From: a virus
Virus record (IMG/VR): IMGVR_UViG_3300036765_000035
Reading direction: 5' to 3' (one strand)
DNA length: 64,000 nucleotides
Made by a program: the position numbers and the translations under genes. Below the pieces are notes generated by a model. That model saw only the letters and a program-made list of their open reading frames with translations, searched no databases and was not told where the DNA came from. Positions 38,859 to 62,901 of the stretch are shown here, piece after piece; position 1 is the first letter of the stretch, and every line of letters begins with the position of its first letter.

Positions 38859-38950
38859 TCAATATTATATTACACATATTACTCAAATTGGATTAGAGTT
38901 AATTGATGATAACGGATTTCATCTTTAAGAAAGAATTTAAGAATATCAAA

Positions 38951-39016
38951 GAAAACATTAAAGAAATTTTAAGAACAATTAAAGAAAACATTAAAGAAAT
39001 TTTAAGAACAATTAAA
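38951..39016. repeat. Two perfect tandem 33-nt repeats (gaaaacattaaagaaattttaagaacaattaaa) followed by degenerate copies extending to about 39080
   Basis: Identical 33-mers at 38951-38983 and 38984-39016. Further diverged units follow (agaatttttaagaacagtaaagaacattaaagaaagaaattttaagaacattaagaaactt). Confidence 0.8.
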
Positions 39017-39140
39017 GAAAGAATTTTTAAGAACAGTAAAGAACATTAAAGAAAGAAATTTTAAGAACATTAAGAAACTTTATACAATTAAAAAATTTTT
39101 TGGAACAGAAAAATAAAGGGATTTTATTAAAATTTGTTAA

Positions 39141-41441: not shown

Positions 41442-41470
41442 AAAAAAGAGAGTTTAACTCTCTTTTTTAA
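41441..41470. terminator. Bidirectional hairpin terminator (AGAGAG..CTCTCT with flanking A- and T-runs) between the convergent helicase and gp46 genes
   Basis: Inverted repeat aaaaaaaagagagtttaactctctttttt. Confidence 0.55.
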
Positions 41471-43664
41471 TATTTGAAAAACGATTCTTTAATTCTATTT
41501 TCAAAGTTTTATTAAACATCGCTGATACTTCATTTCTATGTGAAACAACATACATTGATAAGTTATTTTCTTTTGAAACTTCTTTAATCATTTTTACAGC
41601 CATCATAACACCAACATCACTTAAACCAGTGTCTAGACATTCGTCTAACATACAAAAGTTTATTTTACTATGACCAAACTGTACAACATCTCTAAATGCA
41701 AAAGATAAAGCAAAATCTATCCTTGCCTTTTGACCAGATGATAAATTTGCATATTTTATTGGTGTTCCGAAATTACTAATTTCTGCTGTCATTTCATTAG
41801 TAAATTTGACAATATGTGGTAATCCAATCTTTTTTAAATAATAATCTAACCTTGAATTTAAATATGGTATACTTTTATCCAATAGAGCTTTTCTAATAAA
41901 CGAATCCTTTTTTGTCAATAATTTATACAAAAACATTTTATGCTCAATATCATCAGATAATTTTTCAATTTCTTTCTCTTTTGATTCATCTAATTCAATT
42001 TTATTATAATCATCAATTACCGAATCATATGGATTTGCACTTTTTGTAATTTCATCAATTAAAGATTTGGAGTTGTTATACTTGTTTTCATCTTTTATTA
42101 AATCATTTAATGATTCATATTCTATGTCAATATCATCAAATTCACTTTTTACGGTTTTAATAAGTTTATTTATTTTAACCCTATTTGATTTAAAATTAGA
42201 TATATCTTCATTTATCTCTCCATTATTATGAGGGTTTATTGAATCATTTAATTTATTTAAATCTCTTTTATAGTTTTTATATGTTATTTCACTTTTGTTT
42301 AACTCATCCAAAGTTTTGAATGATAACTCATTGGAAATAATTTTGATTTTATTTTTTATTTTTTTTATTTTAACATTGATTGATTCTTTATTTTTTTCAG
42401 ATGAATTAATATTTTCTTCAGTTGTTTTAATCGTCTTGATTAAATCATCTAATTTTAATTTTGCGTCATTGAACTGTTGTTTACAATAAGGACATTTAGA
42501 TTGTTCTAATAATGTCTCTTCTTTTTTCATTGTTTTTAAATTATTCAATGATGTTTTTATATTTGATTCAATATCATCAAATGTATCAATTTTTTTATCT
42601 AGTTTATTATCAAGACTTTCAAGTAGTAAAAATAATTCTCTGTTTACATCAAAATCATAGTGTTCATATTCATTGATTTTTAGTTTTAGTGAATTTATCT
42701 CATTTACCTTTTTATCTTCCCATTCTTTAGCATGGATTAACGATTTGTTAAGTAAATCAATTTTATAATCTATATTTGACAAATCATTTTTATAATCTTC
42801 AATCTGTTTTTTTAATTTTAAAAAATGTTCTAAATCGTTATAACATTTTTTAAAGTCTATATTTTTAAATTGTTTTAAAATATTTTTATGAAATTTTATT
42901 TTTTCATTTCTTTCATCTTCCCATGAAGATTGTTTCTCAATAGTCTTTTCAATTTGTTCATCGTATTTTCTTTTTTCAGAAATAAGTCTTTCTTCAAAAG
43001 CAACCAAATTTTCCAAATCCTTTTTATCTTCTTTAATAATATCTTTCAATTTTAACGCTTTTTCAGAGAGCATTGTTAAACGTGTTATTTCTTCAAGAAT
43101 CTGTTTTTGTGATACTTTGGATGAATCAGTCAATGGTAGACTTAAAAAAGGTCTATGTGACGTTGTATATAAAATTATTCTAGCACATGTATCAAAACTC
43201 ATACCAATTATCGATTCAATTACATTGTTTATATTTGATACACTATCAGGTGTTATATCTTCTGTTTTTTTATCTTTTTTATTAAAATTATTATCACCAA
43301 TTCTTCTATGAATAATTGCCCCATTTCCACCCAATGCTTTATTTTTTCTAAAACGTGATATTTTATAAAAAACATTGTTTATTTGAAAAAATAGGCAAAC
43401 TTCCATGTCTTTGTTATTAACATTATTAATAATATCATTAATTTGAACATCTGGGGTTAAAACTTTTCCAAACAATGCATACATTAATCCATTAACCATT
43501 GTGGTTTTCCCTGCCCCATTACTGTCTAGTTGTCCTTGGACAGTAACATCTAAGTTTTCACCTACAACTAAAATTGGTTCATTAAAATTTAGATTGAACT
43601 CATTTACGTTGTTTCCATAAGAAAAAAAATTTCTTAATGTCAATTTATGAAATGTTATTTCCAT
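41454..43664 (-). CDS. 46: Rad50/SbcC-like recombination ATPase (T4 gp46-like)
   Basis: Walker A NGAGKTT. Long coiled coil with a CPYC zinc-hook. C-terminal signature LSSGQKARIDFALSFAF and Walker B MLDECLD. Confidence 0.8.
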   Translation of the reverse strand: MEITFHKLTLRNFFSYGNNVNEFNLNFNEPILVVGENLDVTVQGQLDSNGAGKTTMVNGLMYALFGKVLTPDVQINDIINNVNNKDMEVCLFFQINNVFYKISRFRKNKALGGNGAIIHRRIGDNNFNKKDKKTEDITPDSVSNINNVIESIIGMSFDTCARIILYTTSHRPFLSLPLTDSSKVSQKQILEEITRLTMLSEKALKLKDIIKEDKKDLENLVAFEERLISEKRKYDEQIEKTIEKQSSWEDERNEKIKFHKNILKQFKNIDFKKCYNDLEHFLKLKKQIEDYKNDLSNIDYKIDLLNKSLIHAKEWEDKKVNEINSLKLKINEYEHYDFDVNRELFLLLESLDNKLDKKIDTFDDIESNIKTSLNNLKTMKKEETLLEQSKCPYCKQQFNDAKLKLDDLIKTIKTTEENINSSEKNKESINVKIKKIKNKIKIISNELSFKTLDELNKSEITYKNYKRDLNKLNDSINPHNNGEINEDISNFKSNRVKINKLIKTVKSEFDDIDIEYESLNDLIKDENKYNNSKSLIDEITKSANPYDSVIDDYNKIELDESKEKEIEKLSDDIEHKMFLYKLLTKKDSFIRKALLDKSIPYLNSRLDYYLKKIGLPHIVKFTNEMTAEISNFGTPIKYANLSSGQKARIDFALSFAFRDVVQFGHSKINFCMLDECLDTGLSDVGVMMAVKMIKEVSKENNLSMYVVSHRNEVSAMFNKTLKIELKNRFSNIKKES

Positions 43665-44740
43665 TATAACTGCCTAAATATTTCTTGTAGTTTAGTATTT
43701 TTTATTTTATCTGATTTAACATTAGTTAACATTAAAACAACAGATTCTTCAGTTGTCATAGCATTGAGTTCATCGTCAGATAAATTATGTTCTGTTTCCG
43801 CTAAAATACTCTGTAGATTGTTTATTTCTTTTAATCTCATCTCTCTTAGCTCATACATTTCCATGTATTTTGTTCTTATATCAATATCTTCTTGTAATGT
43901 TATGTCAATATCAACTAAACATTCGACCCTTGCATTTTTACACAGAATTGATTCATGTTCTTCCAAAAGTTGAGATAGTGTTACATTAATATATTTTGGG
44001 CAATCATCCCAATTAATATATTTTACAGTATCTGTATCAAAGTTATATGTTGCCATCCCTCTATTGACATCACCTGCATCACTAAAGTCAGCAGGAAAAC
44101 AATTTCCAATAAAATGAACATTATCTTTGTTCTGTCTTTTATGAAAATGCCCAGAAAAAATCTTTTTAATTGATTTAAAATTAGTATGGTCAGTACCATG
44201 CTCCATTACTACATGCTCACCAGTTAGCACAAATCCCTTGAATTCAAAATGACCAAACCAGACAGGTATATCCATGTATGCCAATAATTTATCATATTCA
44301 TCATGGAATAAATAAGGTGAAACTAAAGAACCTTTTTTACCCAACCTTGAAAAAACAGTTGGTTCATTAACAATTGTTATATTTTCAAAAGATTCAAAGA
44401 AATTGGTTGTATAAACTTCCCTGTTTGTTCGATAGTATAAATCATGGTTTCCTATTATCATAAAAATAGGTAAACCTAATTCATTTAATCTTTTTGCTCC
44501 ATTATATGAATATTTGAGTGTTAACCCATCAACTGATGAACGATGTTCATACCAATCTCCAATAAACACAATACAATCAATTTCTTTGTCTTTTGAAACA
44601 TTATCACAGAACCAATCAATATAATCCAAACAATCTTGGTTATGAACAGAACTATTTGCCATTCTACCAAAATGAATATCTGTAAACATTGCACATTTTT
44701 TGTAATAATTTTTATTCTTCATCTTCGCTTTCTTCAACAT
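43664..44740 (-). CDS. 47: Mre11/SbcD-like nuclease (T4 gp47-like)
   Basis: Phosphoesterase motifs DIHFG, GDWYEH, GNHD, GHFH. Start-stop coupled to the gp46-like gene. Confidence 0.85.
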   Translation of the reverse strand: MLKKAKMKNKNYYKKCAMFTDIHFGRMANSSVHNQDCLDYIDWFCDNVSKDKEIDCIVFIGDWYEHRSSVDGLTLKYSYNGAKRLNELGLPIFMIIGNHDLYYRTNREVYTTNFFESFENITIVNEPTVFSRLGKKGSLVSPYLFHDEYDKLLAYMDIPVWFGHFEFKGFVLTGEHVVMEHGTDHTNFKSIKKIFSGHFHKRQNKDNVHFIGNCFPADFSDAGDVNRGMATYNFDTDTVKYINWDDCPKYINVTLSQLLEEHESILCKNARVECLVDIDITLQEDIDIRTKYMEMYELREMRLKEINNLQSILAETEHNLSDDELNAMTTEESVVLMLTNVKSDKIKNTKLQEIFRQL

Positions 44741-45212
44741 AATTTATTTCAATTACGTCACCTTCAATATTTGTCCCCTCATATGAATCATGTTCAGTTC
44801 TCATTGCTTCTTCATGAGCAACCATATAAGAATATGAAGGTGATTTATTTAATTCAATCAATAAATCATTTTTTATATCTTTTTCTTTTTTCTCAGCATT
44901 TTGGTATTGATAAAATGCATTTTTAATAATAGATGTATAATATGAAAAAGGGTTTGGATTTTCTCTATCACAATCAAATTTACTCCATTTTTCAACCATT
45001 GTTTGTATTGCAAAGTTTTTCATATCATCTTTGAAATGTGTTGTGACATAAAATCTAGATGATGATGCATACTTGTCAACCAATAAAATAATCATTTTAG
45101 TCAGCTTATCTGTCAATTTGTTATTTTCCTTACTTAATTTAATTTCAGTAATTAAGTCTCTATTATTTACATAATTTTTTACTCTTCGAGTTTTAGGTTT
45201 TTTTTCTTCCAT
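44712..45212 (-). CDS. 55: Late-transcription sigma factor (T4 gp55-like)
   Basis: KPKTRRVKNYVNNRDLITEI and NPNPFSYYTSIIKNAFYQYQNAEKKEKD align with T4 gp55 KPKYNYVNNKELLQAI and [24 protein letters not shown]. T4-like synteny 46-47-55. Confidence 0.7.
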   Translation of the reverse strand: MEEKKPKTRRVKNYVNNRDLITEIKLSKENNKLTDKLTKMIILLVDKYASSSRFYVTTHFKDDMKNFAIQTMVEKWSKFDCDRENPNPFSYYTSIIKNAFYQYQNAEKKEKDIKNDLLIELNKSPSYSYMVAHEEAMRTEHDSYEGTNIEGDVIEINYVEESEDEE

Positions 45213-45233
45213 GTATTTCTTCCATTATATCAT

Positions 45234-45262
45234 TTCGATATATGATTATATCATATATCGAA
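45234..45262. promoter_or_regulatory. Perfect 13-3-13 palindrome TTCGATATATGAT-TAT-ATCATATATCGAA (operator-like) overlapping the promoter of the gp55 gene
   Basis: The right arm equals the reverse complement of the left arm exactly, checked base by base. Confidence 0.7.
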
Positions 45263-45273
45263 TAAAATGTCAA
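45245..45273 (-). promoter_or_regulatory. Consensus sigma70-type promoter on the minus strand (TTGACA, 17 nt, TATAAT) driving the gp55 gene
   Basis: Reverse complement of 45245..45273 reads TTGACAttttattcgatatatgaTATAAT. The ATG of gp55 is at 45212. Confidence 0.6.
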
Positions 45274-45323
45274 CATCTTTTTTAAAATTTTTAAAAAGGT
45301 AAATTTCTATAAATTTCCAATAA

Positions 45324-45331
45324 TATAAATA
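45324..45331 (+). promoter_or_regulatory. T4-type late promoter box TATAAATA upstream of the 45349 gene
   Basis: Exact TATAAATA 18 nt upstream of the ATG. Confidence 0.45.
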
Positions 45332-45348
45332 TACGTATATGGTAAATA

Positions 45349-45867
45349 TTGAAGGTTATAATAATGGATAATAAAATAACACTACGTGCTAATACTGATA
45401 TTGTTATATTGGATGTTACCCCAAGAATATCAGAGTCACGTACAACAAATTTTGTAGATGCACCAGCACCTTCAGTTAGTGCTGTTGTTGTATATGAATC
45501 AACACAAGGAAGAAAATGGTCTATAAACGCACGATTAATATCTAGAACAGTAGAAGAAGCTAATAAAAATTTTAAGTATATGAACATATTAAAGTCATGG
45601 ATGGTTCCAAAACAAAATTCTGGTGCACTAGGTGTACCACCTGTAGTAACATTGTCTGGGTACAAAGCACAATTTTATGATGTTACAACACAAATGACAT
45701 CATTAAATATTGATTTCCCTGATAATGTTGATTATATAGAAACATCAAAAGCACATGTTCCAATTATTCAAAATATAACTATAACATTAACAGAAAAACA
45801 TGAACCAGAAGATAGAGCTAGTTTTAATTTAACTAATTTTAAACGTGGATTATTGAGAGGATTTTAA
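45349..45867 (+). CDS. Hypothetical late protein (structural/assembly?). Preferred over the antisense ORF 45291..45665.
   Basis: 172 aa, coding-like composition, preceded by a TATAAATA box and followed immediately by the gp53-like gene. Confidence 0.45.
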   Translation: MKVIIMDNKITLRANTDIVILDVTPRISESRTTNFVDAPAPSVSAVVVYESTQGRKWSINARLISRTVEEANKNFKYMNILKSWMVPKQNSGALGVPPVVTLSGYKAQFYDVTTQMTSLNIDFPDNVDYIETSKAHVPIIQNITITLTEKHEPEDRASFNLTNFKRGLLRGF

Positions 45868-51752: not shown

Positions 51753-53618
51753 ATGGAAAAATGGAAAACACTTCAACCTACAACGTCAGATATTTCTGAC
51801 GTTTCTTTTTTAGTTAAGGAATATAAAGATAAAAAAACTTCAAATATTCGAATTAAATATCCACAAGAATATGTGAATTTAATCAATATAACAAGTTTTT
51901 TACCTAATAATGCATCCACAACAAATAGATTATGGCATATTGAACATAATGTATTAGAAACAATTAAATGTGAAAAATGTAAAATAAATGATGTTAAATG
52001 GTATCCATCAAAAGGTGGATATGGTGAATATTGTTCAGTAAAATGTTCGAGTAATTCAAATGATACAAAAAATAAAATAAAAGAAACCAATTTAAAAAAG
52101 TATGGTGAAACATCATATACAAAAACAAAAAAACATAAAAAATTTTTAAAGTCTGATGAATTTAAAAATATAATGAATTCAAGAGAAGTTATAAACAAAA
52201 GAAAGAAAACTAATCTTGATAGATATGGAGTAGAAGAAATATTCCAATCTAATGAAATACAAGAAAAAATTAAAGAAACAAATGAAACAAGATATGGTGT
52301 TGACAACCCTATTAAATCGGATGAAATAAAAGATAAAATAAAAAGAACAAATTTAGAAAAATATGGAACTGAAACTCCATTTCAAAACAGTGAAATAAGA
52401 GATAAAGCTAAAGAAACACTTTATTCAGAATATGGTGTTGAATATGGGTTGCAAGCAAAAGAAATATTAGATAAAACAAAACAAAAATATTACGAAAGAA
52501 CAGGATATTCAACCCCATTTAACAATCCAATAGTTAAAGAAAAAATCAAAGAAATTTTTAAGAAAAAATATGGTGTACACCCAACACTCAAACAGTTTTC
52601 AGATAGAACAATCCAACGAATAAATGATGCAGAATGGTTGAAAGAAAAACACCATACTGAACAAAAAACATTGACAGAAATTTCTTTAAAATATCTTGAA
52701 GGATATGATATATCATCATTGTCAAATAGAATGAAACAATTTGGAATTGAAATAAATTCAAAATTGGTTTCCTTTGCAGAAAAACAATTAAGAGAATATA
52801 TAATATCTTTAGGTATCGATATTGTAACCAATGATAGAAAAACTATATCACCAATGGAATTAGATATATACATTCCAAGTTATAATATTGCAATTGAGTA
52901 TTGTGGAATATATTGGCATTCAGAATTATATAAAGATAAAAAATATCATAAAAATAAATACGAAAAGTGTAAAACACAAGGAATCAGATTAATAACCATT
53001 TTTGAGAATGAATGGATATACAAAAAAGATATTGTAAAAAATAAAATAAAGCATATTTTAGGGAAAACAATAACAAAAATATTTGCAAGAAAATGTAAAA
53101 TACGAGAACCAAGAAAAAAGGATGTTATTGAATTTATAAACAATAATCATATACAAGGATTTAAAGCATCAACAAATTACATTTCATTATATTATGATAA
53201 CAAGATGGTTTCATGTATGTGTTTAACAAAAATAAAAGAAGGATTATACAATATCGATAGGTTTGCATCAAATACAACTGTTATAGGTGGATTTAGTAAA
53301 TTATTAAAATATTTTATAAAAAATAATTTTGATAAGATTGATAAAATTGAAACTTTTTCTGATAATAGATGGGATAATGGTAATGTTTATTTAATAAATG
53401 GATTTAAACATGATAAAGAACTAGCAGAAGATTACTCATATGTTGTTAAAGATAAAACATATCATAAATCAAATTATAGAAAAAAGAATTTAAAAAATAA
53501 ATTACATTACTATGATTCAAATTTGACAGAACATCAAAATTGTTTTAATAATAAAATATATAGAATATATGATTGTGGGAAAGTTAAATTTACTTTAGAT
53601 ATAAAAAAAGAGGAATAA
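51753..53618 (+). CDS. Free-standing homing endonuclease-like protein, a paralog of 12844..14397. N-terminal Cys cluster, six roughly 30-aa K.K.TN..KYG... repeats, then a Vsr-like PD-(D/E)xK nuclease domain.
   Basis: ELDIYIPSYNIAIEYCGIYWHSELYKDK ... GIRLITIFENEW parallels the other copy and the Vsr signature. The shared C-terminal block ends KIYRIYDCGKVKF (compare KIYDCGNMVWSY). Confidence 0.6.
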   Translation: MEKWKTLQPTTSDISDVSFLVKEYKDKKTSNIRIKYPQEYVNLINITSFLPNNASTTNRLWHIEHNVLETIKCEKCKINDVKWYPSKGGYGEYCSVKCSSNSNDTKNKIKETNLKKYGETSYTKTKKHKKFLKSDEFKNIMNSREVINKRKKTNLDRYGVEEIFQSNEIQEKIKETNETRYGVDNPIKSDEIKDKIKRTNLEKYGTETPFQNSEIRDKAKETLYSEYGVEYGLQAKEILDKTKQKYYERTGYSTPFNNPIVKEKIKEIFKKKYGVHPTLKQFSDRTIQRINDAEWLKEKHHTEQKTLTEISLKYLEGYDISSLSNRMKQFGIEINSKLVSFAEKQLREYIISLGIDIVTNDRKTISPMELDIYIPSYNIAIEYCGIYWHSELYKDKKYHKNKYEKCKTQGIRLITIFENEWIYKKDIVKNKIKHILGKTITKIFARKCKIREPRKKDVIEFINNNHIQGFKASTNYISLYYDNKMVSCMCLTKIKEGLYNIDRFASNTTVIGGFSKLLKYFIKNNFDKIDKIETFSDNRWDNGNVYLINGFKHDKELAEDYSYVVKDKTYHKSNYRKKNLKNKLHYYDSNLTEHQNCFNNKIYRIYDCGKVKFTLDIKKEE

Positions 53619-53630
53619 ATCCTCTTTTTT
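53608..53630. terminator. Bidirectional hairpin terminator (AAGAGGA-ataaa-TCCTCTT) between convergent genes
   Basis: 7-bp stem flanked by an A6 run and a T6 run. Confidence 0.55.
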
Positions 53631-54132: not shown

Positions 54133-54206
54133 AGGTGAGTGGTGTAATGGTAGCACAGCGTTCTCCAAAAGCGTTAATGGGGGTTCGATTCCTCTCTCAC
54201 CTGCCA
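54133..54206 (+). tRNA. tRNA-Trp (anticodon CCA), with encoded 3' CCA
   Basis: Hand-folded cloverleaf. Acceptor AGGTGAG/CTCACCT 7 bp, U8, D-stem GTGT/GCAC, anticodon stem GCGTT/AGCGT with wobbles, loop CTCCAAA, T-arm GGGGG-TTCGATT-CCTCT, discriminator G, CCA. Confidence 0.75.
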
Positions 54207-54221
54207 AAACAAAAACATTTC

Positions 54222-54875
54222 ATGAAAAAAATCAAACCAGAAAATTTTAAAATAGGTGATATATTCATTCAAGAGACAGATGGTATAACATTATATCGTT
54301 TAATACTTAATAAAAAACATGATAATAATATAGATTTTTTTATCTTTGATGATATTTTTGGATTTAACAATATTTCATTAGATTCAAATAAAGAATATGC
54401 TGTAATTTCAAATAAAACAAAAGTTAACAAAATAAAAGAAAAATATAGAAAAAGATTATTAGATAATTATAAACATTGTTTACAGTGTATATCATTATTT
54501 AATAAGCATAAACATTTATTAGATAATGGTACACAAAAAATCAAAAAATTTAAAGAATTAGAAACTGGTGATTTGTTTGACTCTGGATTTGTTTTGAATG
54601 TAGAGAAAGAAATGTTTCTTGGATATAGAGTTGAATTTTTATATAATAATGAATCATTATATCATATGATAGGTGAATTACAAACATGTTCAATAATCTC
54701 ATCAAAAGAATTATTTGATGATTGTGATGATTCTGATGATGAAACTGAATACAATATTTTTAATGGAAACATTGAAAAAGTAAAAGAATTTAAGGAGTTA
54801 ATGGTAAAGGTTATTGAACTTACTCATAATAATTATACAACATTATATAATTTAACAGAAATAGAAACAGAATAA
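54222..54875 (+). CDS. Hypothetical protein. Start moved to the first ATG downstream of tRNA-Trp.
   Basis: In-frame Met (MKKIKPENFKIGD...) at 54222. The upstream part of the annotated ORF overlaps the tRNA. Confidence 0.4.
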   Translation: MKKIKPENFKIGDIFIQETDGITLYRLILNKKHDNNIDFFIFDDIFGFNNISLDSNKEYAVISNKTKVNKIKEKYRKRLLDNYKHCLQCISLFNKHKHLLDNGTQKIKKFKELETGDLFDSGFVLNVEKEMFLGYRVEFLYNNESLYHMIGELQTCSIISSKELFDDCDDSDDETEYNIFNGNIEKVKEFKELMVKVIELTHNNYTTLYNLTEIETE

Positions 54876-54876
54876 A

Positions 54877-55425
54877 ATGTATTATGCAGGTATAGGCTCT
54901 AGAAAAATACCAAAAGTTATAAAAGATTTAATGGTAGTCATTGGATATGCAATGGCAGAAAACGGTTACGTCTTACGTTCTGGTGGTGCAGAAGGTGCAG
55001 ATACAGCATTTCAAAAAGGTTGTCAACAATGGTGTGATGACAACAATGTGCCATATTGTAAAAGACAAGAAATATATTTACCTTGGAATAATTTTAACAA
55101 TTTAAAAGTTGATAAGCATAAAGGAATAACAACAGAAACATTTTGGTTAGCACATGATTTGGTTTATGAAACTCACCCTAATGCAAAAAATTTATCACCA
55201 TCAGTAATGAAATTAATGGTAAGAAATGTTGCACAAATTTATGGCTTAAACAATACCCCATCTGATTTGATAATATGCTGGACACCTGATGGTGCAACAA
55301 AAACAACCACAAATGAAACAGGTGGAACAGGACAAGCATTAAGATTGGCATTAATAGATAACATTCCAATAATAAATTTAAAATTAAAAAAACACATAAA
55401 ATTGATTGAAAAAATATTAATATAA
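54877..55425 (+). CDS. DprA/Smf-like Rossmann-fold (SLOG superfamily) protein
   Basis: GIGSRKIPKVIKDLMVVIGYAMAENGYVLRSGGAEGADTAFQKG follows the DprA pattern (GSR......A..LA..G..VVSGLA.GID.AAH.GA). Confidence 0.45.
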   Translation: MYYAGIGSRKIPKVIKDLMVVIGYAMAENGYVLRSGGAEGADTAFQKGCQQWCDDNNVPYCKRQEIYLPWNNFNNLKVDKHKGITTETFWLAHDLVYETHPNAKNLSPSVMKLMVRNVAQIYGLNNTPSDLIICWTPDGATKTTTNETGGTGQALRLALIDNIPIINLKLKKHIKLIEKILI

Positions 55426-55433
55426 ATTAAAAC

Positions 55434-55462
55434 TTGTAAAAAAATTTTTTAAATGATATAAT
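55434..55462 (+). promoter_or_regulatory. Sigma70-like promoter (TTGTAA, 17 nt, TATAAT) upstream of the SPFH gene
   Basis: TTGTAAaaaaattttttaaatgaTATAAT, then the RBS AGGAG, then ATG at 55495. Confidence 0.5.
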
Positions 55463-55494
55463 TTTCTAACTTATTAATACTTAGGAGTAAAAAA

Positions 55495-56217
55495 ATGAAT
55501 CATTTAATTGGTATGGGAATATTTTTATTTATATATGCAGTTGCATATATTTTGTTTTTAAAAAATCATAGACAATATAATATAATTGCATTGCCATTAG
55601 TAATGGCATTAATTGTGTCATTGGGTTTTAGTGGAGCAACATTCTATGCAGAACCCGGTTTTATATATCATGTACGAACAATTACAGGAACTGAAAAAGT
55701 AATCAGTGATGTAGGGTATAATTTCCATTGGTTTGGGAGATATAACTCATGGAAAAGAGCGATGACTGTACAATCAACAGACATTGGAAATAATAATGAT
55801 ACTGATAAATTGACAGCAGAAAATACTGATTCAACTGTATTGTCAGCCATGTTACGTCCACAAAAAATAGTATTTCTTGACCAAGTTGATGCATTGATTC
55901 AATCATCTGTTAGGTTCAAAATTCCTTCAGAAGAAGAAGCTTTTTTAAGATTGGTACATGAATACAGAACACCAGATAATCTATTAAGGGCAACTTTAAT
56001 TCCAGCATTTAGAGAAACATTACAGGCAACAGCATCTTTAATGACAGCAGAAGAATATTATTCTGGTGGAAGAACAGAGTTTAGTAATGAATTTGAAACA
56101 CAGATGAATGATGGAATTTATATTGTTAAAAGGATTGAAAAAATCGAAAAAAATGTTGTAACATCAACAAGTTCCGCAAATGCATCGAAGGGTTGTAACT
56201 GTTTCATATTAATATGA
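55495..56217 (+). pseudogene. 5' portion of an SPFH/band-7 (stomatin/flotillin/HflK-like) membrane-protein gene, interrupted by the IS607-like element. The last ~10-15 codons read into the insertion.
   Basis: N-terminal TM helices, then band-7 core blocks (VRFKIPSEEEAFLRLVHEYRTPDNLLRATLIPAFRETLQATASLMTAEEYYSGGR ... GIYIVKRIEKIE). The ORF ends a few codons after GIxV..V.I.xI, where SPFH proteins normally continue. Confidence 0.5.
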
Positions 56218-56267
56218 TAAATTTTATAGAAAATTATATTTAATTTGCAATTTATATAAATACAAGT

Positions 56268-56867
56268 ATGAATAAATTAATATCTTTACAAAAAACAAGT
56301 GAAATATTGTGTCTTTCTAAATGGGGAGTCCGAAGAACACCAGAATCAATATTGCCAGTTTATCGAACAGCAGGAGGACACAGAAGATATAAACTTCAAG
56401 ATGTACAAAAATTAATAGGAGAAGAAACTAAACTAATAAGTGATGACAATAATGTTGCCATTTATAGTAGAGTTTCTTCTCATGAACAAAAGAAATCAGG
56501 TGATTTATCACGTCAAAAAGACAGATTAATCAATTATTGCATTAATAAACAATATACAATTGTATCCAACCTCGAAGAGGTTGGTTCTGGTATGAATGAT
56601 AAAAGACCAAAACTGGTTAAATTAATTGATTTGGCATGTAAAGGTGAAATAAATAAAATAATAATTGAACACCGAGACAGATTAACCCGTTTTAATTTTA
56701 ATATTTTTAAATTATTTATGAAACACCATAATGTTACTATTGAGGTTATTAAAGAATCAGAAAAAATATCTTTTGAAGAAGAATTAGTATCAGATATAAT
56801 TTCATTGATGACATCATTTTCTGGAAAAATTCATGGGAAGAGAAGCCATAAAAATGTTAATAAATAA
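56268..56867 (+). CDS. tnpA: IS607-type transposase TnpA: MerR-like HTH fused to a serine recombinase (resolvase) catalytic domain
   Basis: HTH region SEILCLSKWGVRRTPE ... YRTAGGHRRY. Catalytic-serine motif AIYSRVSSHEQK. 199 aa, overlapping tnpB by 35 nt. Confidence 0.75.
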   Translation: MNKLISLQKTSEILCLSKWGVRRTPESILPVYRTAGGHRRYKLQDVQKLIGEETKLISDDNNVAIYSRVSSHEQKKSGDLSRQKDRLINYCINKQYTIVSNLEEVGSGMNDKRPKLVKLIDLACKGEINKIIIEHRDRLTRFNFNIFKLFMKHHNVTIEVIKESEKISFEEELVSDIISLMTSFSGKIHGKRSHKNVNK

Positions 56868-58074
56868 AACATACAAAACAGAAATCAAACCAAATAATAA
56901 ACAGAAAACATTTCTTATGCAAAGTTGTGGTGTTTCGAGATTGGCTTATAATTGGGGATTGGATTTAATAAAAAATGATTATGAGCAAGGAGAAAAATAC
57001 AAAGGAGCGATTGGACTTCATAAAGCACTCTGTGCTATTAAAAAAGCACAATTTCCGTTTATGTATGATGTTAGTAAACAAGCACCCCAAAATTCACTCC
57101 GTGACTTAGATAAAGCAATGAAAAATTTTTGGAGAGGAATAAAAAATAAAAAACATATAGGGTTTCCTAAATTTAAATCAAAAAAATATTCCAAAAATTC
57201 ATTTCGTATTGATGGAGCAAATATTGATGTCACTGATAATTTTGTTAAATTACCAAAAATTGAAAAAATAAGACTGAAAGAAAGAAATTATATTCCAACT
57301 GAAAACATAAAAGTGCTGAATTGTACAATATCAAAAGAAATAAACCGATGGTTTATTTCTGTGTCAGTACAAGAAGAAATATTTAATGATAATATTCCAG
57401 AAGAAATTATTGGAATTGATTTAGGAATCAAAGATTTGGCTACTTGCTCCAATGGATTGATATTTAATAATCCAAAATATACAAATAAGTATGCTAAACA
57501 ACTAAAGTTTGCTCAACGAGAACTTAGTAGAAAAATAAAAGGTTCTAAAAACCGAGATAAACAACGCATTAAAGTTGCTAAAATACATAAGAAAATTAGA
57601 AATTCCCGAAAAGACACAATTAATAAAATGACCTCTAATATCACGAAAACCAAGTGCAGAATTATTGGAATTGAAAATCTGTGTGTATCAGGAATGACTA
57701 AGAACCATAAATTAGCAAAGGCAGTCACAGATGCCAGTTTTTTTGAAATAAGACGACAACTAGAATATAAAAGTGAATGGAATGGTGGCAGAATTTGTTT
57801 AGTTGACAGGTTTTTCCCTTCTTCCAAAACTTGTAGTTGTTGTGGATTAATCAAAGAAATGCCATTAAATGAACGGGTTTATTCATGCGATTGTGGATTT
57901 GTGATGGACAGAGACCTTAATGCGTCTATTAATTTAGAAACATATACCGCAAGTTCTGCGGAATTTAATGCTTATGGAGAGAACATAAGACTCGCTTCTA
58001 GTGAACTAGAAAAAAGCAATCTCTGTGAAGTAAGAAATAAACTTGAATTTGAATATATTGCTCAAATTCTGTAA
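56833..58074 (+). CDS. tnpB: TnpB (OrfB_IS605 / Cas12 ancestor, RNA-guided endonuclease family), apparently intact
   Basis: RuvC-I IGIDLGIKDLATCS (D), RuvC-II IIGIENLCVSG (E), zinc finger CSCCG...CDCG, RuvC-III DRDLNASINL (D). 413 aa. Confidence 0.85.
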   Translation: MGREAIKMLINKTYKTEIKPNNKQKTFLMQSCGVSRLAYNWGLDLIKNDYEQGEKYKGAIGLHKALCAIKKAQFPFMYDVSKQAPQNSLRDLDKAMKNFWRGIKNKKHIGFPKFKSKKYSKNSFRIDGANIDVTDNFVKLPKIEKIRLKERNYIPTENIKVLNCTISKEINRWFISVSVQEEIFNDNIPEEIIGIDLGIKDLATCSNGLIFNNPKYTNKYAKQLKFAQRELSRKIKGSKNRDKQRIKVAKIHKKIRNSRKDTINKMTSNITKTKCRIIGIENLCVSGMTKNHKLAKAVTDASFFEIRRQLEYKSEWNGGRICLVDRFFPSSKTCSCCGLIKEMPLNERVYSCDCGFVMDRDLNASINLETYTASSAEFNAYGENIRLASSELEKSNLCEVRNKLEFEYIAQIL

Positions 58075-58579
58075 GTTTTATAGAACGGAAGAACAAGAAC
58101 TATTAGCAAATGCAAAAGGAAAAAGACAAGTTGCTGAAAGACAGGCACAAGCAAAAGTTGAACAAATTGAACGTACAACTAAAGCAGAAACCGAAAAACA
58201 ATTAGCAATTACAGAAGCTTTAAAAATTAAAGAAAAAGCAACAATTGAACAAGAAGCAGCTAAGATTCAACTAGAAAGAGACAAACTAGTTGCTCAATCC
58301 CAAAAAGTTCTTGCAGATGCTGAAGCGTATAAAAGAAATGCAATTATTAAATCAGATAATGCGTTACAACAAAAACTTGAAGCTGAAATAAAAATTCAAA
58401 AGGTTTGGGCAGATGCATTTGCTCAACGTAAAGTTCCTCAAACAATGTTTATAACAGGAAGTTCAGGTGAATCAGGTCATGTTGGTTCAAACAATGAGTT
58501 GCAAAATATGATGCAAATGATGACACTTCAAATGGCAAAAAATCTTGATAACGATAGAAAAGTTGTAAAAGATAAGTAA
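58043..58579 (+). pseudogene. 3' portion of the same SPFH/band-7 gene (C-terminal coiled-coil/flotillin-like region), downstream of the IS607-like element. The frame opens at 58034 inside the end of tnpB.
   Basis: AKGKRQVAERQAQAKVEQIERTTKAETEKQLAITEALKIKEKATIEQEAAKIQLERDKL is a band-7 C-terminal helical repeat. The ORF has no ATG and begins within the IS. Confidence 0.5.
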
Positions 58580-58630
58580 CATTATAAAAAAACAGATATA
58601 AATAATATGATATTAAACAATAATGGATAA

Positions 58631-58876
58631 ATGATGGACAGTGATTATATATTTTCTATTAAAATAGTATTTGTTGATAATACAGAATTGGAAATTGAAA
58701 TTTCACGTAGAGCAAGTACTTATCAAATTGCAACTACAAAGATAAAAATGGAAATAGAAAAAATGGCAATGGAAGGATTTTATGAAAACTATAAAGACGG
58801 TAATATCTATACATTTCATTCCCCTTTTTCAATAAAAACAATTGAGGTAATAAAATGTTATGAAAAAAAATATTAA
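58631..58876 (+). CDS. Small hypothetical early protein
   Basis: 81-aa ORF in a same-strand array of small genes. Confidence 0.35.
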   Translation: MMDSDYIFSIKIVFVDNTELEIEISRRASTYQIATTKIKMEIEKMAMEGFYENYKDGNIYTFHSPFSIKTIEVIKCYEKKY

Positions 58877-59234
58877 TTTCACAATTGAAGAAATAGAATC
58901 AAAAAAGAAAGAAATTTTTAAAAGTCCAAAATATTGGTTATATAGAAATAAAATAAAACTGTTTAATACTGTTGAAAATATTGCAACTCTTGGATTTTTT
59001 TATGGGGTTGCAGTAACATTTTCACTCAATCATATGAATTTAATTGTTCTGGCAAATATTATAAAAGATGAATTAGATTTAATTGACGATAAAAATGATT
59101 GTCATAGAGAGTATAATATTTTAGTAAAAAACATTTTATCAAAATCGTTTTTGATGATAGATGAAGAAAATAATTTATATAATATTGAAAAACTGTTAAC
59201 AATATTATTGACATTAGAGAAAATAAACAAATGA
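58860..59234 (+). CDS. Small hypothetical early protein
   Basis: 124-aa ORF. Confidence 0.35.
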   Translation: MKKNINFTIEEIESKKKEIFKSPKYWLYRNKIKLFNTVENIATLGFFYGVAVTFSLNHMNLIVLANIIKDELDLIDDKNDCHREYNILVKNILSKSFLMIDEENNLYNIEKLLTILLTLEKINK

Positions 59235-59986
59235 AAAGAGAATTACATCATTTACAATTACTGGCAGGAATACAAAATGAAATAGGTAATACAATAAAAG
59301 ATAAAGTCCTATTTGATGATATTAAAGTTTATAAAAAGGATTGTGAGTATAAGATATTTTTACAATATCACAATTTTTTATTAAAAACAATTAAAGATGT
59401 TTTAAATCTTAAAGGACTATTTTCAAATAATACACGTGATAAATTAAATGTAAAGGATATAGAATTAGATTTGTTTTCAACATGTTATAGAATTGAAGTT
59501 TTTCTTGATGACATTAAAAAAGGAAAAAATAAATTTTATGAACATATTCTAGAAAAAACATCTACTAGGACACCCAATGTAAATAAAATTACGTTAAAAA
59601 CAAATAAAGAGAAAGAAACAAATACATTATCATTAAAAGATATAGTTGATGCTAATTTAGATATATTTGGAAATAATAACATAATTCCAGATTTTAATTC
59701 TTATATGTTTAATCCATATAATAAGAATATATATGAAACATTTTTATCAGATTTAAAAAATGGGTTAATAAATAAAATGGAATATGTTGAAAATGTTGTT
59801 GGAGATAATAAAAATAATAAAATACTTTCTTATTCTGACAAGAAAATTAAAGAAATTGATAAAATGTTTAAAAATGTAAATGATGGAAATTTTACATCAT
59901 CAGTAAAAGATTTAAAAGATTGCATTGTCAGCGTTTATAATAAATATATAACTTTTGAAAAAAAATATAATGAAGAAAAATCTTAA
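59231..59986 (+). CDS. Hypothetical protein
   Basis: 251-aa ORF coupled to its neighbours. Confidence 0.4.
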   Translation: MKRELHHLQLLAGIQNEIGNTIKDKVLFDDIKVYKKDCEYKIFLQYHNFLLKTIKDVLNLKGLFSNNTRDKLNVKDIELDLFSTCYRIEVFLDDIKKGKNKFYEHILEKTSTRTPNVNKITLKTNKEKETNTLSLKDIVDANLDIFGNNNIIPDFNSYMFNPYNKNIYETFLSDLKNGLINKMEYVENVVGDNKNNKILSYSDKKIKEIDKMFKNVNDGNFTSSVKDLKDCIVSVYNKYITFEKKYNEEKS

Positions 59987-60341
59987 AAGTTTGATTGAAA
60001 CCATCATTGATAAAAGGAAATATGTTTATGGGTGGGATGGATATGATGGAATACCAATTAACGACAGTACAGTGATAGATGGAATTAAATTATTGCTTAA
60101 TAATATTTTCTTGAATTCTCCTATTATTTCATATGCAGGTGATGGTGAACTTTCATTTTATTGGAGTAACAGTAATTTAACAATGTTAATAAGTTTATAT
60201 GGCAATGGGTTATATGAATATGGTGGAATTAATAAAATAACTAAAGAAGAATTAGAAGATGAAGATATTGATATAAATGAACCTATTCCAAAAAATATCA
60301 TGGAATTAATAAATATTGAAAACAATAATGAGGAAATATAA
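59955..60341 (+). CDS. Hypothetical protein
   Basis: 128-aa ORF. Confidence 0.35.
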   Translation: MKKNIMKKNLKSLIETIIDKRKYVYGWDGYDGIPINDSTVIDGIKLLLNNIFLNSPIISYAGDGELSFYWSNSNLTMLISLYGNGLYEYGGINKITKEELEDEDIDINEPIPKNIMELINIENNNEEI

Positions 60342-60535
60342 TGCCAATATTAGATTTTAAATGTAATAAATGTGGGAAAGAACATAAAGATAAGGTTGTA
60401 TCATTTTCTATTGCTGATTCAGGATATGAATGTGATAATGTAGAAAATGATGTTAAATGTGATGGGACAATGGAAAAAAGTAAGGTGATAACATCAAGCT
60501 CAACGTTCATTTTTAAAGGAAAATTAAGATATTAA
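60341..60535 (+). CDS. Small Cys-rich protein (zinc-ribbon-like)
   Basis: CNKCGKEHKDK ... CDNVENDVKCDG. Confidence 0.35.
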   Translation: MPILDFKCNKCGKEHKDKVVSFSIADSGYECDNVENDVKCDGTMEKSKVITSSSTFIFKGKLRY

Positions 60536-60642
60536 AATTATTTTAAAAAAATATAAAAATGTAAGTTATTGAATTTAAATGAAATTTTTATATATTAGAA
60601 CATTTTTTTAATTTTTTTTTGAAAAAAATATAAATAAAAGTA

Positions 60643-60670
60643 TTGACATAATAAAATTATTATGTATAAT
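60643..60670 (+). promoter_or_regulatory. Consensus sigma70 promoter (TTGACA, 16 nt, TATAAT)
   Basis: tatTGACAtaataaaattattatgTATAATgc. Confidence 0.6.
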
Positions 60671-60705
60671 GCACAATATTAATTAAATAAAGAAAAATAA
60701 TATTT

Positions 60706-60831
60706 ATGAAACAGCTAAAATCACAATTTGTTATTAAACAGAAACTTGGTAATTCGTTACCGAGTGAGCGTGATTATGCGTATAATTTTCATAGACAAAA
60801 AACGCTTCTTTGTTACAGGTGCATTAGATAA
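60706..60831 (+). CDS. Short transcription unit (promoter to terminator, about 200 nt) encoding either a 41-aa basic peptide or a small RNA
   Basis: ATG at 60706, translated MKQLKSQFVIKQKLGNSLPSERDYAYNFHRQKTLLCYRCIR. Bracketed by a consensus promoter and the 60859 terminator. Below the ORF-track size cutoff. Confidence 0.3.
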   Translation: MKQLKSQFVIKQKLGNSLPSERDYAYNFHRQKTLLCYRCIR

Positions 60832-60858
60832 AAAAAATAAATTACCTATAATCAAAGA

Positions 60859-60882
60859 AGCAGTCAAAAAGACTGCTTTTTT
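60859..60882 (+). terminator. Rho-independent terminator (AGCAGTC-aaaaa-GACTGCT plus TTTTTT)
   Basis: 7-bp perfect stem and T6 run. Confidence 0.65.
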
Positions 60883-60907
60883 GCTTTAAGAGATTAAGAA
60901 AATAAAT

Positions 60908-60923
60908 GTTCACAAATGTGAAC
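60908..60923. promoter_or_regulatory. 16-bp palindrome GTTCACA-AA-TGTGAAC (operator-like) just upstream of the tRNA cluster
   Basis: 7-2-7 perfect inverted repeat. Confidence 0.45.
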
Positions 60924-61014
60924 CCAATAACGAAATGTTATTGATGATATCATGAAATGTGGTATCAGGTGAAAATAGTTCATTAACAATTTGGAATAAA
61001 TGTTAATTTAGTGA

Positions 61015-61089
61015 GAACCAGTCGTCCAACGGTTAAGACGCTAGACTTTCAATCTGGTAATGGGGGTTCGATTCCCCTCTGGTTCTCCA
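61015..61089 (+). tRNA. tRNA-Glu (anticodon UUC), CCA encoded
   Basis: Acceptor GAACCAG/CTGGTTC, D-stem CGTC/GACG, anticodon stem CTAGA/TCTGG, loop CTTTCAA, T-arm GGGGG-TTCGATT-CCCCT. Confidence 0.65.
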
Positions 61090-61154
61090 ATCTTTTATTT
61101 TTTAATATTAAAAGATTCATAAATAAAATATTATGAAACTTGAAAATATATTAT

Positions 61155-61229
61155 GTGGGTTGTAGCTTAATGGCAAAGCAGAAGTTTGTGGCACTTCTGA
61201 TACGAGTTCGATTCTCGTCAATCCACCCA
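61155..61229 (+). tRNA. tRNA-His (anticodon GUG) with encoded G-1 and CCA
   Basis: G-1 opposite discriminator C. Acceptor TGGGTTG/CAATCCA, D-arm GCTT-AATGGCA-AAGC, anticodon arm GAAGT-TTGTGGC-ACTTC, T-arm ACGAG-TTCGATT-CTCGT. Confidence 0.8.
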
Positions 61230-61333
61230 ATATAAAAATGGTTGTTGAAATATACTAGCATGGTGGTAGCTAACCACCACATTAAATAATTAAAAAGCGT
61301 TCGACTTGGAGAAGTCAGAAAAACAATCATTTT

Positions 61334-61407
61334 GGGGATATCGTCTAATGGGAGGATAAAACTGTTGCATAGTTTAGATTTCGGTTCGAATCCGAATATC
61401 TCCACCA
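61334..61407 (+). tRNA. tRNA-Ala (anticodon UGC), CCA encoded
   Basis: Acceptor GGGGATA/TATCTCC, anticodon arm AAACT-GTTGCAT-AGTTT, T-arm TTCGG-TTCGAAT-CCGAA. Confidence 0.75.
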
Positions 61408-61413
61408 ATTTTT

Positions 61414-61491
61414 CTCTGTGTAGCTTTAATCTGGTAGAGCACTCGTTTTGGGAACGAGGGGTTAGAGGTTCGAATCCTCTCACGGAGACCA
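61414..61491 (+). tRNA. tRNA-Pro (anticodon UGG), CCA encoded
   Basis: Acceptor CTCTGTG/CACGGAG, anticodon arm CTCGT-TTTGGGA-ACGAG, T-arm AGAGG-TTCGAAT-CCTCT. Confidence 0.75.
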
Positions 61492-61636
61492 AACATAAAA
61501 AAATGAAAGAGTAAAAATAAATAGAGTAAAGATATATATTTCACATAAGTGCATTCCCTATTAAGATGTTAATAGAACGAAGGTTGTAAAAGGTCAATTA
61601 AATGTATATCGGTGAGACATCACTACTCTATTTTTT

Positions 61637-61727
61637 GGATGTGCGGTGACGATGGTGGTGTCACGGCAGACTGTAAATCTGTCCCCTCTGGGTAACATTG
61701 TAGGTTCGAATCCTACCGCATCCACCA
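61637..61727 (+). tRNA. tRNA-Tyr (anticodon GUA), type II with a long variable arm, CCA encoded
   Basis: Acceptor GGATGTG/CGCATCC, anticodon arm GCAGA-CTGTAAA-TCTGT, long variable region, T-arm TAGG-TTCGAAT-CCTA. The D-arm region is slightly irregular. Confidence 0.6.
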
Positions 61728-61821
61728 ATTTTTAAACCTCATTTAACAATAGGAAAAATGGTTTGAATAAATATATAAATACACATATAAATAAATATTT
61801 ATAACCATTAGAGGAATTATT

Positions 61822-62460: not shown

Positions 62461-62488
62461 TAACATTAAAGAAGGGTAATATTGAGAT

Positions 62489-62502
62489 ATCCACCAATTT
62501 TT
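62489..62502 (+). repeat. Orphan copy of the tRNA 3'-end motif ATCCACCAATTTTT (also at 61721-61734 after tRNA-Tyr; CCACCAATTTTT also follows tRNA-Ala at 61403-61414)
   Basis: 14-nt direct repeat bracketing the 61822..62460 gene. No tRNA body precedes this copy. Confidence 0.6.
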
Positions 62503-62513
62503 TATAAAAAAGG

Positions 62514-62541
62514 TTGACAGTTTAAATTAAATCATTATAAT
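62514..62541 (+). promoter_or_regulatory. Consensus sigma70 promoter (TTGACA, 16 nt, TATAAT) upstream of the second tRNA group
   Basis: aggTTGACAgtttaaattaaatcatTATAATataaaa. Confidence 0.6.
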
Positions 62542-62571
62542 ATAAAAAACATTATAATTATGTTGGGTGTG

Positions 62572-62649: not shown

Positions 62650-62706
62650 CTTAATTATATTAAGAAATTAAACAATTTAATATTATGTACTATAAAATAT
62701 TAATAA

Positions 62707-62781: not shown

Positions 62782-62804
62782 GATTTTGTAAATAAAAATA
62801 TAAT

Positions 62805-62880: not shown

Positions 62881-62901
62881 AATTAAAAAAAAAATATCAT
62901 A

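Follow-up and report, generated by a model that had tools for sequence, protein, structure and literature searches.

Why does the promoter that drives a late sigma factor gene in a T4-like phage lie inside a perfect palindrome, and what might such a palindrome do there? The question is raised by a 64,000-nucleotide stretch of DNA (IMG/VR record IMGVR_UViG_3300036765_000035; this whole stretch is referred to here as the window), which belongs to an uncultivated jumbo T4-like phage from wastewater. In the window, a gp55-like late sigma factor gene is preceded on the minus strand by the sequence GATG-TTGACA-TTTTATTCGATATATGA-TATAAT-CATATATCGAAATGATATAATGGAAGAAATAC-ATG. This promoter matches the sigma70 consensus in 12 of 12 positions, with the TG present and a 17-nucleotide spacer, and its -10 hexamer lies at the centre of a 29-bp palindrome. 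Judged from its sequence and from its history among relatives, the palindrome is genuine, evolutionarily maintained and embedded in the promoter, and it is probably a control element. With less than even confidence, we favour the explanation that it serves as an operator for a symmetric repressor that would occlude the -10 hexamer and the start site, and that its arms would be kept perfect by hairpin-templated mutation. The features of the region are as follows.

44712-45212, minus strand: gp55-like late sigma factor gene, 166 amino acids, matching PHROG 234 ('late sigma transcription factor') at 8.7e-18
45234-45262: perfect palindrome with 13-bp arms and a 3-nucleotide centre, TTCGATATATGAT-TAT-ATCATATATCGAA on the plus strand
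45274-45300, minus strand: A/T-rich tract upstream of the -35 hexamer, by its sequence a putative UP-like element
45273-45268, minus strand: -35 hexamer TTGACA
45267-45251, minus strand: spacer of 17 nucleotides, TTTTATTCGATATATGA
45245-45255, minus strand: extended -10 element TATG-A-TATAAT, TGATATAAT (TRTGn plus the hexamer at 45250-45245), the hexamer being at the centre of the palindrome
45238-45239, minus strand: predicted transcription start within the right arm, placed from the position of the -10 hexamer only, 6-7 nucleotides downstream of it
45224-45232, minus strand: second TGATATAAT, by sequence a perfect extended -10 element, in the initially transcribed region at about +8 to +16
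45219-45223, minus strand: Shine-Dalgarno (SD) sequence GGAAG, 6 nucleotides 5' of the ATG
45308-45315 and 45324-45331, plus strand: T4-type late promoter boxes TATAAATT and TATAAATA, respectively, for the divergent structural operon

The gp55-like open reading frame (ORF) also matched PHROG 12791 at 3.6e-15 and had no Pfam match; 32 nucleotides separate the -10 hexamer from its ATG at 45212. On the opposite side, the TATAAATA late box is located 32 nucleotides 5' of the plus-strand ATG at 45364, and relatives carry AATAAATAG at the late-box position. A first-pass annotation of this DNA had reported the late sigma factor gene, its perfect sigma70 promoter, the 29-bp palindrome with 13-bp arms over spacer, -10 and start site, and the late boxes for the divergent plus-strand gene, and each of these was recovered here.

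Perfect promoters of the form TTGACA-N15-19-TATAAT occur four times in the window as compared to an expectation of 0.66, and none of 100 shuffled sequences reached four. A-tracts comparable to that of the gp55 promoter are present upstream of the other consensus promoters of the window. The conservation of the promoter was studied in 21 collected loci that carry a gp55 relative. In 17 of them TTGnnn-~17 nt-TRTGnTAnnnT was encountered 30-85 nucleotides upstream of gp55, within intergenic sequences that are otherwise unrelated; TTGnnn is kept in most relatives, and the complete TTGACA is invariant in three of the loci, L005, L082 and L089. The persistence of this promoter despite unrelated intergenic DNA argues that transcription of the gp55 operon by host sigma70 is an old and conserved trait of this phage group. 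The second TGATATAAT at 45224-45232 is probably incidental because it is not kept in L005, L082 and L089; it could cause sigma70-dependent promoter-proximal pausing of the gp55 transcript. The predicted 5' untranslated region (UTR) of gp55 is unstructured (-0.7 kcal/mol, z +0.56).

In the sense of gp55, the left arm of the palindrome extends over 45262-45250, the centre ATA over 45249-45247 and the right arm over 45246-45234. Relative to the predicted start, the palindrome covers about -24 to +5 and thereby spacer, -10 and +1, and its three central nucleotides are A-11, T-10 and A-9 of the -10 hexamer. The left arm ends with TATG-A-T, which is TRTGn plus the first base of the -10, and the loop together with the first two bases of the right arm completes the hexamer. 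In the window, four loci carry a perfect palindrome whose arms have at least 13 bp and whose loop has at most 6 nucleotides, as compared to 0.04 expected from dinucleotide shuffling; the other three loci are two terminator-like hairpins with an A-run and a T-run and one hairpin that carries a late promoter and an SD sequence. Folded as a DNA hairpin, the palindrome of the window has a free energy of -10.7 kcal/mol (z -3.9). Among the five consensus-like promoters of the window, the gp55 promoter is the sole carrier of the element. Palindromes at two other consensus promoters, 54087 (8-1-8) and 60643 (9-2-9), were discarded, as they consist of A/T only and are short enough to be expected by chance.

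Has the palindrome been maintained during evolution? It is kept at the same promoter position in three diverged lineages, and four distinct sequences are available, given here in the sense of gp55.

Window: TTCGATATATGAT-ATA-ATCATATATCGAA, arms of 13 bp
L082, 1875-1903: TGTTATATATGAT-AAA-ATCATATATAACA, arms of 13 bp
L005, 3936-3974: CTGATTTTTATATATGAT-AAA-ATCATATATAAAAATCAG, arms of 18 bp
L089, 9937-9973: TGGTTTTTATATATGAT-ACA-ATCATATATAAAAACCA, arms of 17 bp

The gp47 protein encoded by the window is 61-64% identical to those of L082, L005 and L089, and that of L082 is 72% identical to those of L005 and L089; the remaining intergenic sequence cannot be aligned between the window and these three loci. 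When the four sequences were aligned on their centres and 18 pairs were scored, 10 pairs never varied, 6 had changes in both partners, and none had a change in one partner only. In this alignment 90% of the cells were paired, as compared to 29-54% when the partner column was slid. The inner 9 bp of each arm are invariant across the four sequences, and pairs 10-12 all vary. Loci L005 and L089 are 93.6% identical overall. Of their five differences in the element, one affects the loop, and the other four are at positions 15 and 18, mirrored across the centre. At pair 15 an A:T has become a G:C with pairing kept, and at pair 18 both sides have changed and pairing is lost. The chance that four changes fall on two mirrored pairs among 36 arm positions is about 0.003 (153 of 58,905 placements). 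The loop varies as A-N-A and the -10 remains TATAAT, TAAAAT or TACAAT, so that the promoter is preserved in each copy. As DNA hairpins, the four sequences have free energies of -9.0 to -14.8 kcal/mol (z -3.9 to -9.3). As read from this alignment, the co-variation of the outer arms and their variable length are the signature of arm-to-arm pairing, as in a hairpin, and not of protein contacts.

Invariance of the core has to be read with the promoter in mind. The promoter, together with a need for pairing, would fix the inner six pairs. It offers no reason why the three pairs that follow (ATA/TAT, at about -20 to -18 and -3 to -1) do not vary, and these are the only such pairs; where a relative lacks the palindrome, the ATA stretch of its spacer varies freely. 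The invariant ATA/TAT pairs are weak evidence for sequence-specific recognition (P about 0.1 under partial divergence) and, weak as they are, form the main internal argument for a protein.

A different arrangement was observed in L008, the gp47 of which is 56% identical to that of the window. At 1002-1032 of this locus a 12-7-12 palindrome, TTTACATGAAAA-GCTTGAT-TTTTCATGTAAA, extends over the -35 hexamer and the spacer of the gp55 promoter, and an extra upstream promoter (TTGTAA-17-TATACT) is present, RNA from which would begin at the first base of the palindrome and carry a 5'-terminal stem-loop. The sister of L008, L083, has no palindrome at its gp55 promoter, that of L008 included, and in more distant relatives no palindrome was found beyond a repeat with 8-bp arms in L009 and L012.

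According to the operator explanation, the region would be a composite element made of a very strong host-sigma70 promoter and a dyad that is centred exactly on the -10 hexamer. A dimeric or tetrameric DNA-binding protein seated on the dyad would cover about -24 to +5 and keep RNA polymerase away from both the -10 hexamer and the start site. In this way the gp55-gp47-gp46 operon could be silenced or delayed on its own, apart from the other consensus early promoters, where the dyad is absent. The recognition sequence would be the invariant 21-bp core ATATATGAT-N3-ATCATATAT. The outer arms, which are variable yet complementary, would be a by-product of a transient hairpin formed in replication, where template switching would copy changes from one arm to the other. 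Such quasi-palindrome correction, which Ripley is said to have first described in T4 in 1982, would keep the symmetry perfect and would lengthen it. The operator explanation needs this extra mechanism because the mirrored changes lie so far out that protein contacts are unlikely there. The binding protein would be either encoded by the phage, in which case a DsbA-like protein of 97 amino acids is the sole candidate, or a regulator of the host.

Further copies of the site were sought. With up to 2 mismatches, the half-site TTCGATATATGAT had 10 matches in the 64-kb window (7.0 expected), and with up to 3 mismatches the dyad TATATGAT-N3-ATCATATA had 7 matches there (4.9 expected); in both cases only the gp55 site was real. 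No second dyad or half-site was detected in 20.6 kb of L089 or in the fetched parts of L005 and L082. In IMG/VR, the core dyad ATATATGATNNNATCATATAT had 17 matches, 0 of them in the context of a TTGACA promoter and 0 adjoining gp55.

In the search for a protein that might bind the dyad, about 50 ORFs of the window were compared with Pfam and/or PHROGs. Among them no Cro/CI-type helix-turn-helix (HTH), HTH_3, ribbon-helix-helix or Fur-like protein was found, and the only candidate regulator in the window is the following.

6208-6501, minus strand: gene for a DsbA-like small DNA-binding protein of 97 amino acids (Pfam PF11126, 2.1e-5; PHROG 639)

The match to PF11126 amounts to 25.1 bits with a cut-off of 25, and that to PHROG 639 ('transcriptional regulator') has an E-value of 1e-15. 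The gene is located behind its own perfect sigma70 promoter (6534-6562, minus strand) and is absent from the fetched stretches of the relatives' loci. Through an ATGA overlap it is translationally coupled to the start of the gene for a family-B DNA polymerase (3578-6208, minus strand), which is followed by a clamp-like gene (2845-3576); in relatives of T4, the coupling partner of dsbA is gene 33 (PMC2988020). DsbA of T4, a protein of about 10 kDa, binds with low affinity to A/T-rich sites that overlap late promoters, and its function is unknown (PMC2988020). A link between the DsbA-like protein and the palindrome is speculative. A 517-amino-acid protein with a Ros/MucR finger was identified as a homing endonuclease; it is encoded at 12844-14397 (minus strand), is of the HNH type (PHROG 559/3339, 6e-86) and has the Ros/MucR zinc finger at its N-terminus (3.1e-10), followed by a NUMOD3 motif.

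Does a similar element exist in bacteria? When one genome per species (185,579 genomes) was scanned for TTGACA-N6-12-ATATATGAT-N3-ATCATATAT, the sole match was obtained in a metagenome-assembled genome of an Oscillospiraceae bacterium from deer omasum (L088, positions 5579-5614 of JAGAWT010000025.1). At this locus TTGACA is followed, after 17 nucleotides, by TAATAT with TATG-A before it, and the -10 is centred in a 10-1-10 palindrome, ATATATGATA-A-TATCATATAT, which is perfect and identical to the phage core. The site lies 46 nucleotides upstream of a gene for a ZIP zinc transporter (Pfam Zip, 6.9e-24). Dimeric proteins of the Fur family classically repress metal-uptake genes by binding palindromes that overlie the promoter (PMC6103462). 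The L088 box fits neither the Fur nor the Zur consensus register, and the palindrome at this ZIP promoter may be a metal-regulator box that has not been described before. Through its spacing, orientation and gene class the bacterial match is suggestive, and the count of matches is not clearly above chance.

In favour of the operator, the dyad covers spacer, -10 and +1 of a 12/12 consensus promoter, and the element keeps its position in L082, L005 and L089 amid flanks that cannot be aligned. The invariant ATA/TAT pairs, the intact -10 in every copy, the restriction of the element to one of five consensus-like promoters and the bacterial parallel also count for it, as does the presence in the window of a gene for a small DNA-binding protein of a kind linked to late transcription. 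A number of points weigh against it. No cognate repressor was found, and DsbA of T4, to judge by analogy, is a weak binder without a known role as repressor. Perfect arms of 13-18 bp are atypical of operators, and the differences between L005 and L089 are mirrored at 15 and 18 bp from the centre, where protein contacts are unlikely. The promoter (TRTGnTAWAAT) and pairing together already account for six of the nine invariant core positions. Dyad and half-site are single-copy in 64 kb of a genome of roughly 300 kb and in 20.6 kb of L089. Neither sister lineage, L008 or L083, has the element, and the bacterial match is a single case, where about 0.3-1 would be expected before spacing and orientation were required and about 0.05 thereafter. 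The first-pass annotation had spoken of a textbook repressor operator with a dedicated regulator. The position of the palindrome is indeed one where an operator would occlude RNA polymerase, but the arms co-vary and differ in length, and the operator is retained here as the leading hypothesis only. Neither the further half-site copies nor the small dimeric HTH protein to which that annotation had pointed were encountered, the former in the 64-kb window and 20.6 kb of a relative, the latter among the roughly 50 ORFs scanned. The same annotation would have given up the operator for a palindrome that is unique and not conserved in related phages; the palindrome is single-copy, yet it is conserved in related phages.

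What is maintained most clearly is the complementarity of one arm to the other, with both sides changed in 6 of 18 pairs, one side in none, and the excess of paired cells described above. This is also what would be expected if the palindrome acted as DNA secondary structure, without a sequence-specific repressor, a serious if doubtful alternative that can take two forms. As a cruciform, extruded under negative supercoiling, the palindrome would place the -10 in hairpin loops and switch the promoter off, making it a timer of the late sigma factor that responds to supercoiling or to the state of replication; as a hairpin in single-stranded DNA, it would be a start site for recombination or replication that adjoins the Mre11/Rad50-like genes. 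The mirrored changes between L005 and L089, the arm lengths of 13, 13, 17 and 18 bp with pairing always perfect, the stability of the DNA hairpins (-9 to -14.8 kcal/mol, z -3.9 to -9.3), the 3-nucleotide loop and the richness of the arms in alternating AT all agree with such a structure, and most of the invariant core can be understood as promoter constraint plus its mirror image. However, the core ATA/TAT is invariant though this model does not need it, arms of 13 bp seldom extrude at the superhelicity found in vivo, natural cruciform-regulated sigma70 promoters are very rare, and several relatives (L008, L083, L091-L093) do without the element. The site, where two transcription units diverge, is also the minimum of the cumulative GC skew, a coincidence that is confounded by gene orientation; a replication origin called from GC skew was rejected, as the cumulative minimum at 44-46 kb coincides with the change of coding strand and is uninformative. 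That topology or replication state times the expression of the late sigma factor and of Mre11/Rad50 without any protein, or that recombination or replication starts at the divergent junction, appears unlikely to us. Some of the same observations would follow if the palindrome had no regulatory role and had arisen as an inverted duplication of spacer and extended -10, by a template switch seeded at the nearly self-complementary -10 hexamer. The duplication would have been tolerated because discriminator and 5' UTR are unconstrained, and hairpin-templated conversion would keep its arms perfect. The promoter puts few constraints on the region of the right arm, templated mutation would predict both the mirrored changes and the differing arm lengths, the element is single-copy, no binding protein was found, and the sister lineages lack it with no visible replacement of the same kind. 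We nevertheless regard a neutral origin as distinctly unlikely, since neutral palindromes are expected to decay or to be deleted, whereas this one stayed perfect across lineages with gp47 proteins 61-64% identical and with randomised flanks, its -10 is functional by sequence in every copy, and its core is as conserved as the -35 hexamer.

Co-variation of this kind resembles that of structured RNA, the phage seems to possess a promoter-in-hairpin translational switch elsewhere (7185-7215), and a hypothetical read-through RNA across the gp55 palindrome folds at -15 kcal/mol. An RNA hairpin might thus be a stability or processing element of the 5' UTR, an attenuator, or a structure of the T4 gene e type that sorts upstream from internal transcripts. 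Neither strand is expected to be transcribed across both arms, however, because the predicted start lies in the right arm and the upstream gene is divergent. RNA from the gp55 promoter itself would lack the left arm and be unstructured (-0.7 kcal/mol), no sense-strand promoter or late box lies upstream, the SD sequence is outside the stem, 11 nucleotides downstream, and no Rfam match was obtained, all of which makes a role in RNA very improbable. Finally, the mirror image provides TATG-A on the plus strand as well, and a symmetric bidirectional promoter could fire a plus-strand transcript toward the structural genes. On the plus strand the corresponding hexamer is TTATAT in the window, TTTTAT in both L005 and L082, and TTGTAT in L089; the essential A at -11 is missing from each, and no -35 exists on the plus side, where the gene has its own late boxes. 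In addition, the axis is at -10 and not at -9, where it is reportedly found in the bidirectional promoters that Warman and coworkers are said to have described in 2021, and we consider bidirectional firing hardly credible.

In T4, replication times late transcription by way of the sliding clamp, and we know of no operator on T4 gene 55. If a dyad does act on the gp55 promoter, it would represent an additional, dedicated control over the supply of late sigma factor and Mre11/Rad50 in a clade of jumbo T4-like phages, exerted by a repressor, possibly a host factor that couples phage development to host physiology, or by a switch in DNA structure. Also, compensatory evolution of a promoter-embedded DNA palindrome would offer a clean natural case for how perfect palindromes persist.

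The neighbouring genes are the following.

43664-44740, minus strand: gp47/Mre11-like nuclease gene, overlapping the gp55 stop, in the same operon (Pfam Metallophos; PHROG 100, 9e-53)
41454-43664, minus strand: gp46/Rad50-like gene, last of the operon and followed by the palindrome 41442-41468 (PHROG 77, 3e-77)
45364-45867, plus strand: divergent virion structural gene, followed by a gp53-like baseplate wedge gene and a portal gene

The gene order 55-47-46, with overlapping stops and starts, is as in T4. The window has a G+C content of 27% and carries T4-like core genes for portal, gp53-like wedge, gp15-like tail protein, tail tube, family-B DNA polymerase, clamp-like protein and prohead protease, as well as 10 tRNA genes and several homing endonucleases. 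An identical gp55 protein is encoded on contigs of a Toulon wastewater metagenome (IMG 3300036762; PMC7311315). No close relative at the DNA level was found among deposited phages (INPHARED). The nearest deposited phages, as judged by the portal protein, are the jumbo Xanthomonas phages XacN1 and Xoo-sp13 (about 52% amino acid identity), in which the gene order at the locus differs, and a metagenome scan with gp55 returned only L008 again and one distant locus.

Several other elements were noted. At 7185-7215 (minus strand), at the start of the ORF 6566-7186, a palindrome with 13-bp arms carries a late box, TATAAATA (7209-7202), in its left arm and loop and an SD sequence, AGGAGAU, in its right arm, 4 nucleotides before the ATG at 7186. 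With a predicted free energy of -15.2 kcal/mol (z -5.7), the fold of read-through RNA would hide the SD sequence, and RNA started after the late box would be open (-1.4 kcal/mol). By analogy, this looks like an early-off/late-on translational switch of the T4 gene e/soc type. The perfect palindromes at 11144-11173, 14416-14444, 41442-41468 and 53604-53630 are intergenic and consist of an A-run, a G/C-containing stem and a T-run; from their sequences, they look like bidirectional intrinsic terminators, and that at 41442-41468 is situated between the convergent helicase and gp46-like genes. Degenerate tandem repeats with a period of about 33-34 nucleotides (2.6-3 copies, A-rich, AAGAACAATTAAAGAAA...) are located at 38924-39077 between plus-strand genes, within a 330-bp stretch free of ORFs. 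The ten tRNA genes (Trp, Glu, His, Ala, Pro, Tyr, Arg, Lys, Phe, Asn) at 54133-63695 are served by consensus sigma70 promoters at 54087, 60643 and 62514, and a GIY-YIG/NUMOD3 homing endonuclease (62902-63540) is encoded among them. In an IS607-like mobile element at 56268-58074, a gene for a serine recombinase that is extended at its N-terminus (Resolvase, 2.3e-20) precedes one for TnpB (OrfB_IS605, 4e-26; Cas12f1-like TNB; HTH_OrfB). Among the relatives, the portal gene of L005 (1-1009) carries an intein (970 amino acids, Portal_T4 plus Intein_splicing), and that of L089 (5369-7009), from a phage 93.6% identical to L005, is intein-free (546 amino acids).

How does the gp55 element compare with known systems? 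In 1988, Horwitz and Loeb reportedly obtained a laboratory-selected E. coli promoter that is regulated by cruciform extrusion. As in that promoter, a perfect palindrome spans the -10 at the gp55 site, extrusion would destroy the promoter, and the arms are similar to those of the ColE1 cruciform, which have 13 bp; in contrast to the selected promoter, the gp55 site is natural. To our knowledge, no natural cruciform promoter of a phage late sigma factor is known. In the control of the T4 gene e/soc type, which McPheeters and coworkers are said to have described in 1986, a promoter lies inside a hairpin. The gp55 promoter is likewise embedded in a hairpin, and its own transcripts are without the 5' arm; however, it is of the sigma70 and not of the late type, the SD sequence is outside the hairpin, and no read-through is expected. 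Promoters of the N4 virion RNA polymerase are hairpins with stems of 5-7 bp and a 3-nucleotide loop, which are read by that polymerase. The gp55 site shares with them a hairpin with a 3-nucleotide loop, centred about 10-12 nucleotides upstream of the start, and an N4-like hairpin promoter was rejected, as no virion-type RNA polymerase domain was found in the window, including an ORF of 3357 amino acids, and a full sigma70 consensus is present.

The promoter-early stem-loops (PeSLs) of T4-type phages (Arbiol et al. 2010, PMC2839356; Comeau et al. 2014, PMC4122927) also combine a promoter with a stem-loop. Like them, the gp55 site has an early promoter of sigma70 consensus, an A/T-rich upstream tract and a sequence able to form a stem-loop, in a T4-related phage. 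The stem-loop of a PeSL lies beside the promoter, beyond the AT-rich tract, is usually G/C-rich (GGGG...CCCC) and terminates upstream transcription, and PeSLs occur in many copies in hyperplastic regions, where they flank ORFans (PMC2839356). Classification as a PeSL was rejected, since the gp55 palindrome is inside the promoter, AT-rich, without a T-run and without a co-directional gene upstream, and since it is single-copy and adjoins the core genes 55, 47 and 46.

Operators placed over -10 and +1, as those of LexA, Fur/Zur and phage Cro/CI, resemble the gp55 site in having a dyad with an odd centre at which a dimer would occlude the -10 and the start. The gp55 site has a conserved core of 21 bp, and its TGATAAT-like content also serves as an extended -10 element, a feature of many Fur-controlled promoters. 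The 9-1-9 box of Fur is GATAATGAT-A-ATCATTATC. A Fur or Zur box was nevertheless rejected, as the spacing at gp55 is 9-3-9, as opposed to 9-1-9 or 7-1-7 for Fur, and only the inner ATGAT is shared with the GATAAT-type half-site of such boxes. The 9-3-9 spacing also differs from that of Zur boxes (PMC6103462). Unlike the known operators, the gp55 site has perfect and longer arms (13-18 bp), the outer parts of which co-vary; it is single-copy, and no cognate protein was found for it. By analogy, then, the element fits none of the named operator families and would work like a promoter-occluding operator.

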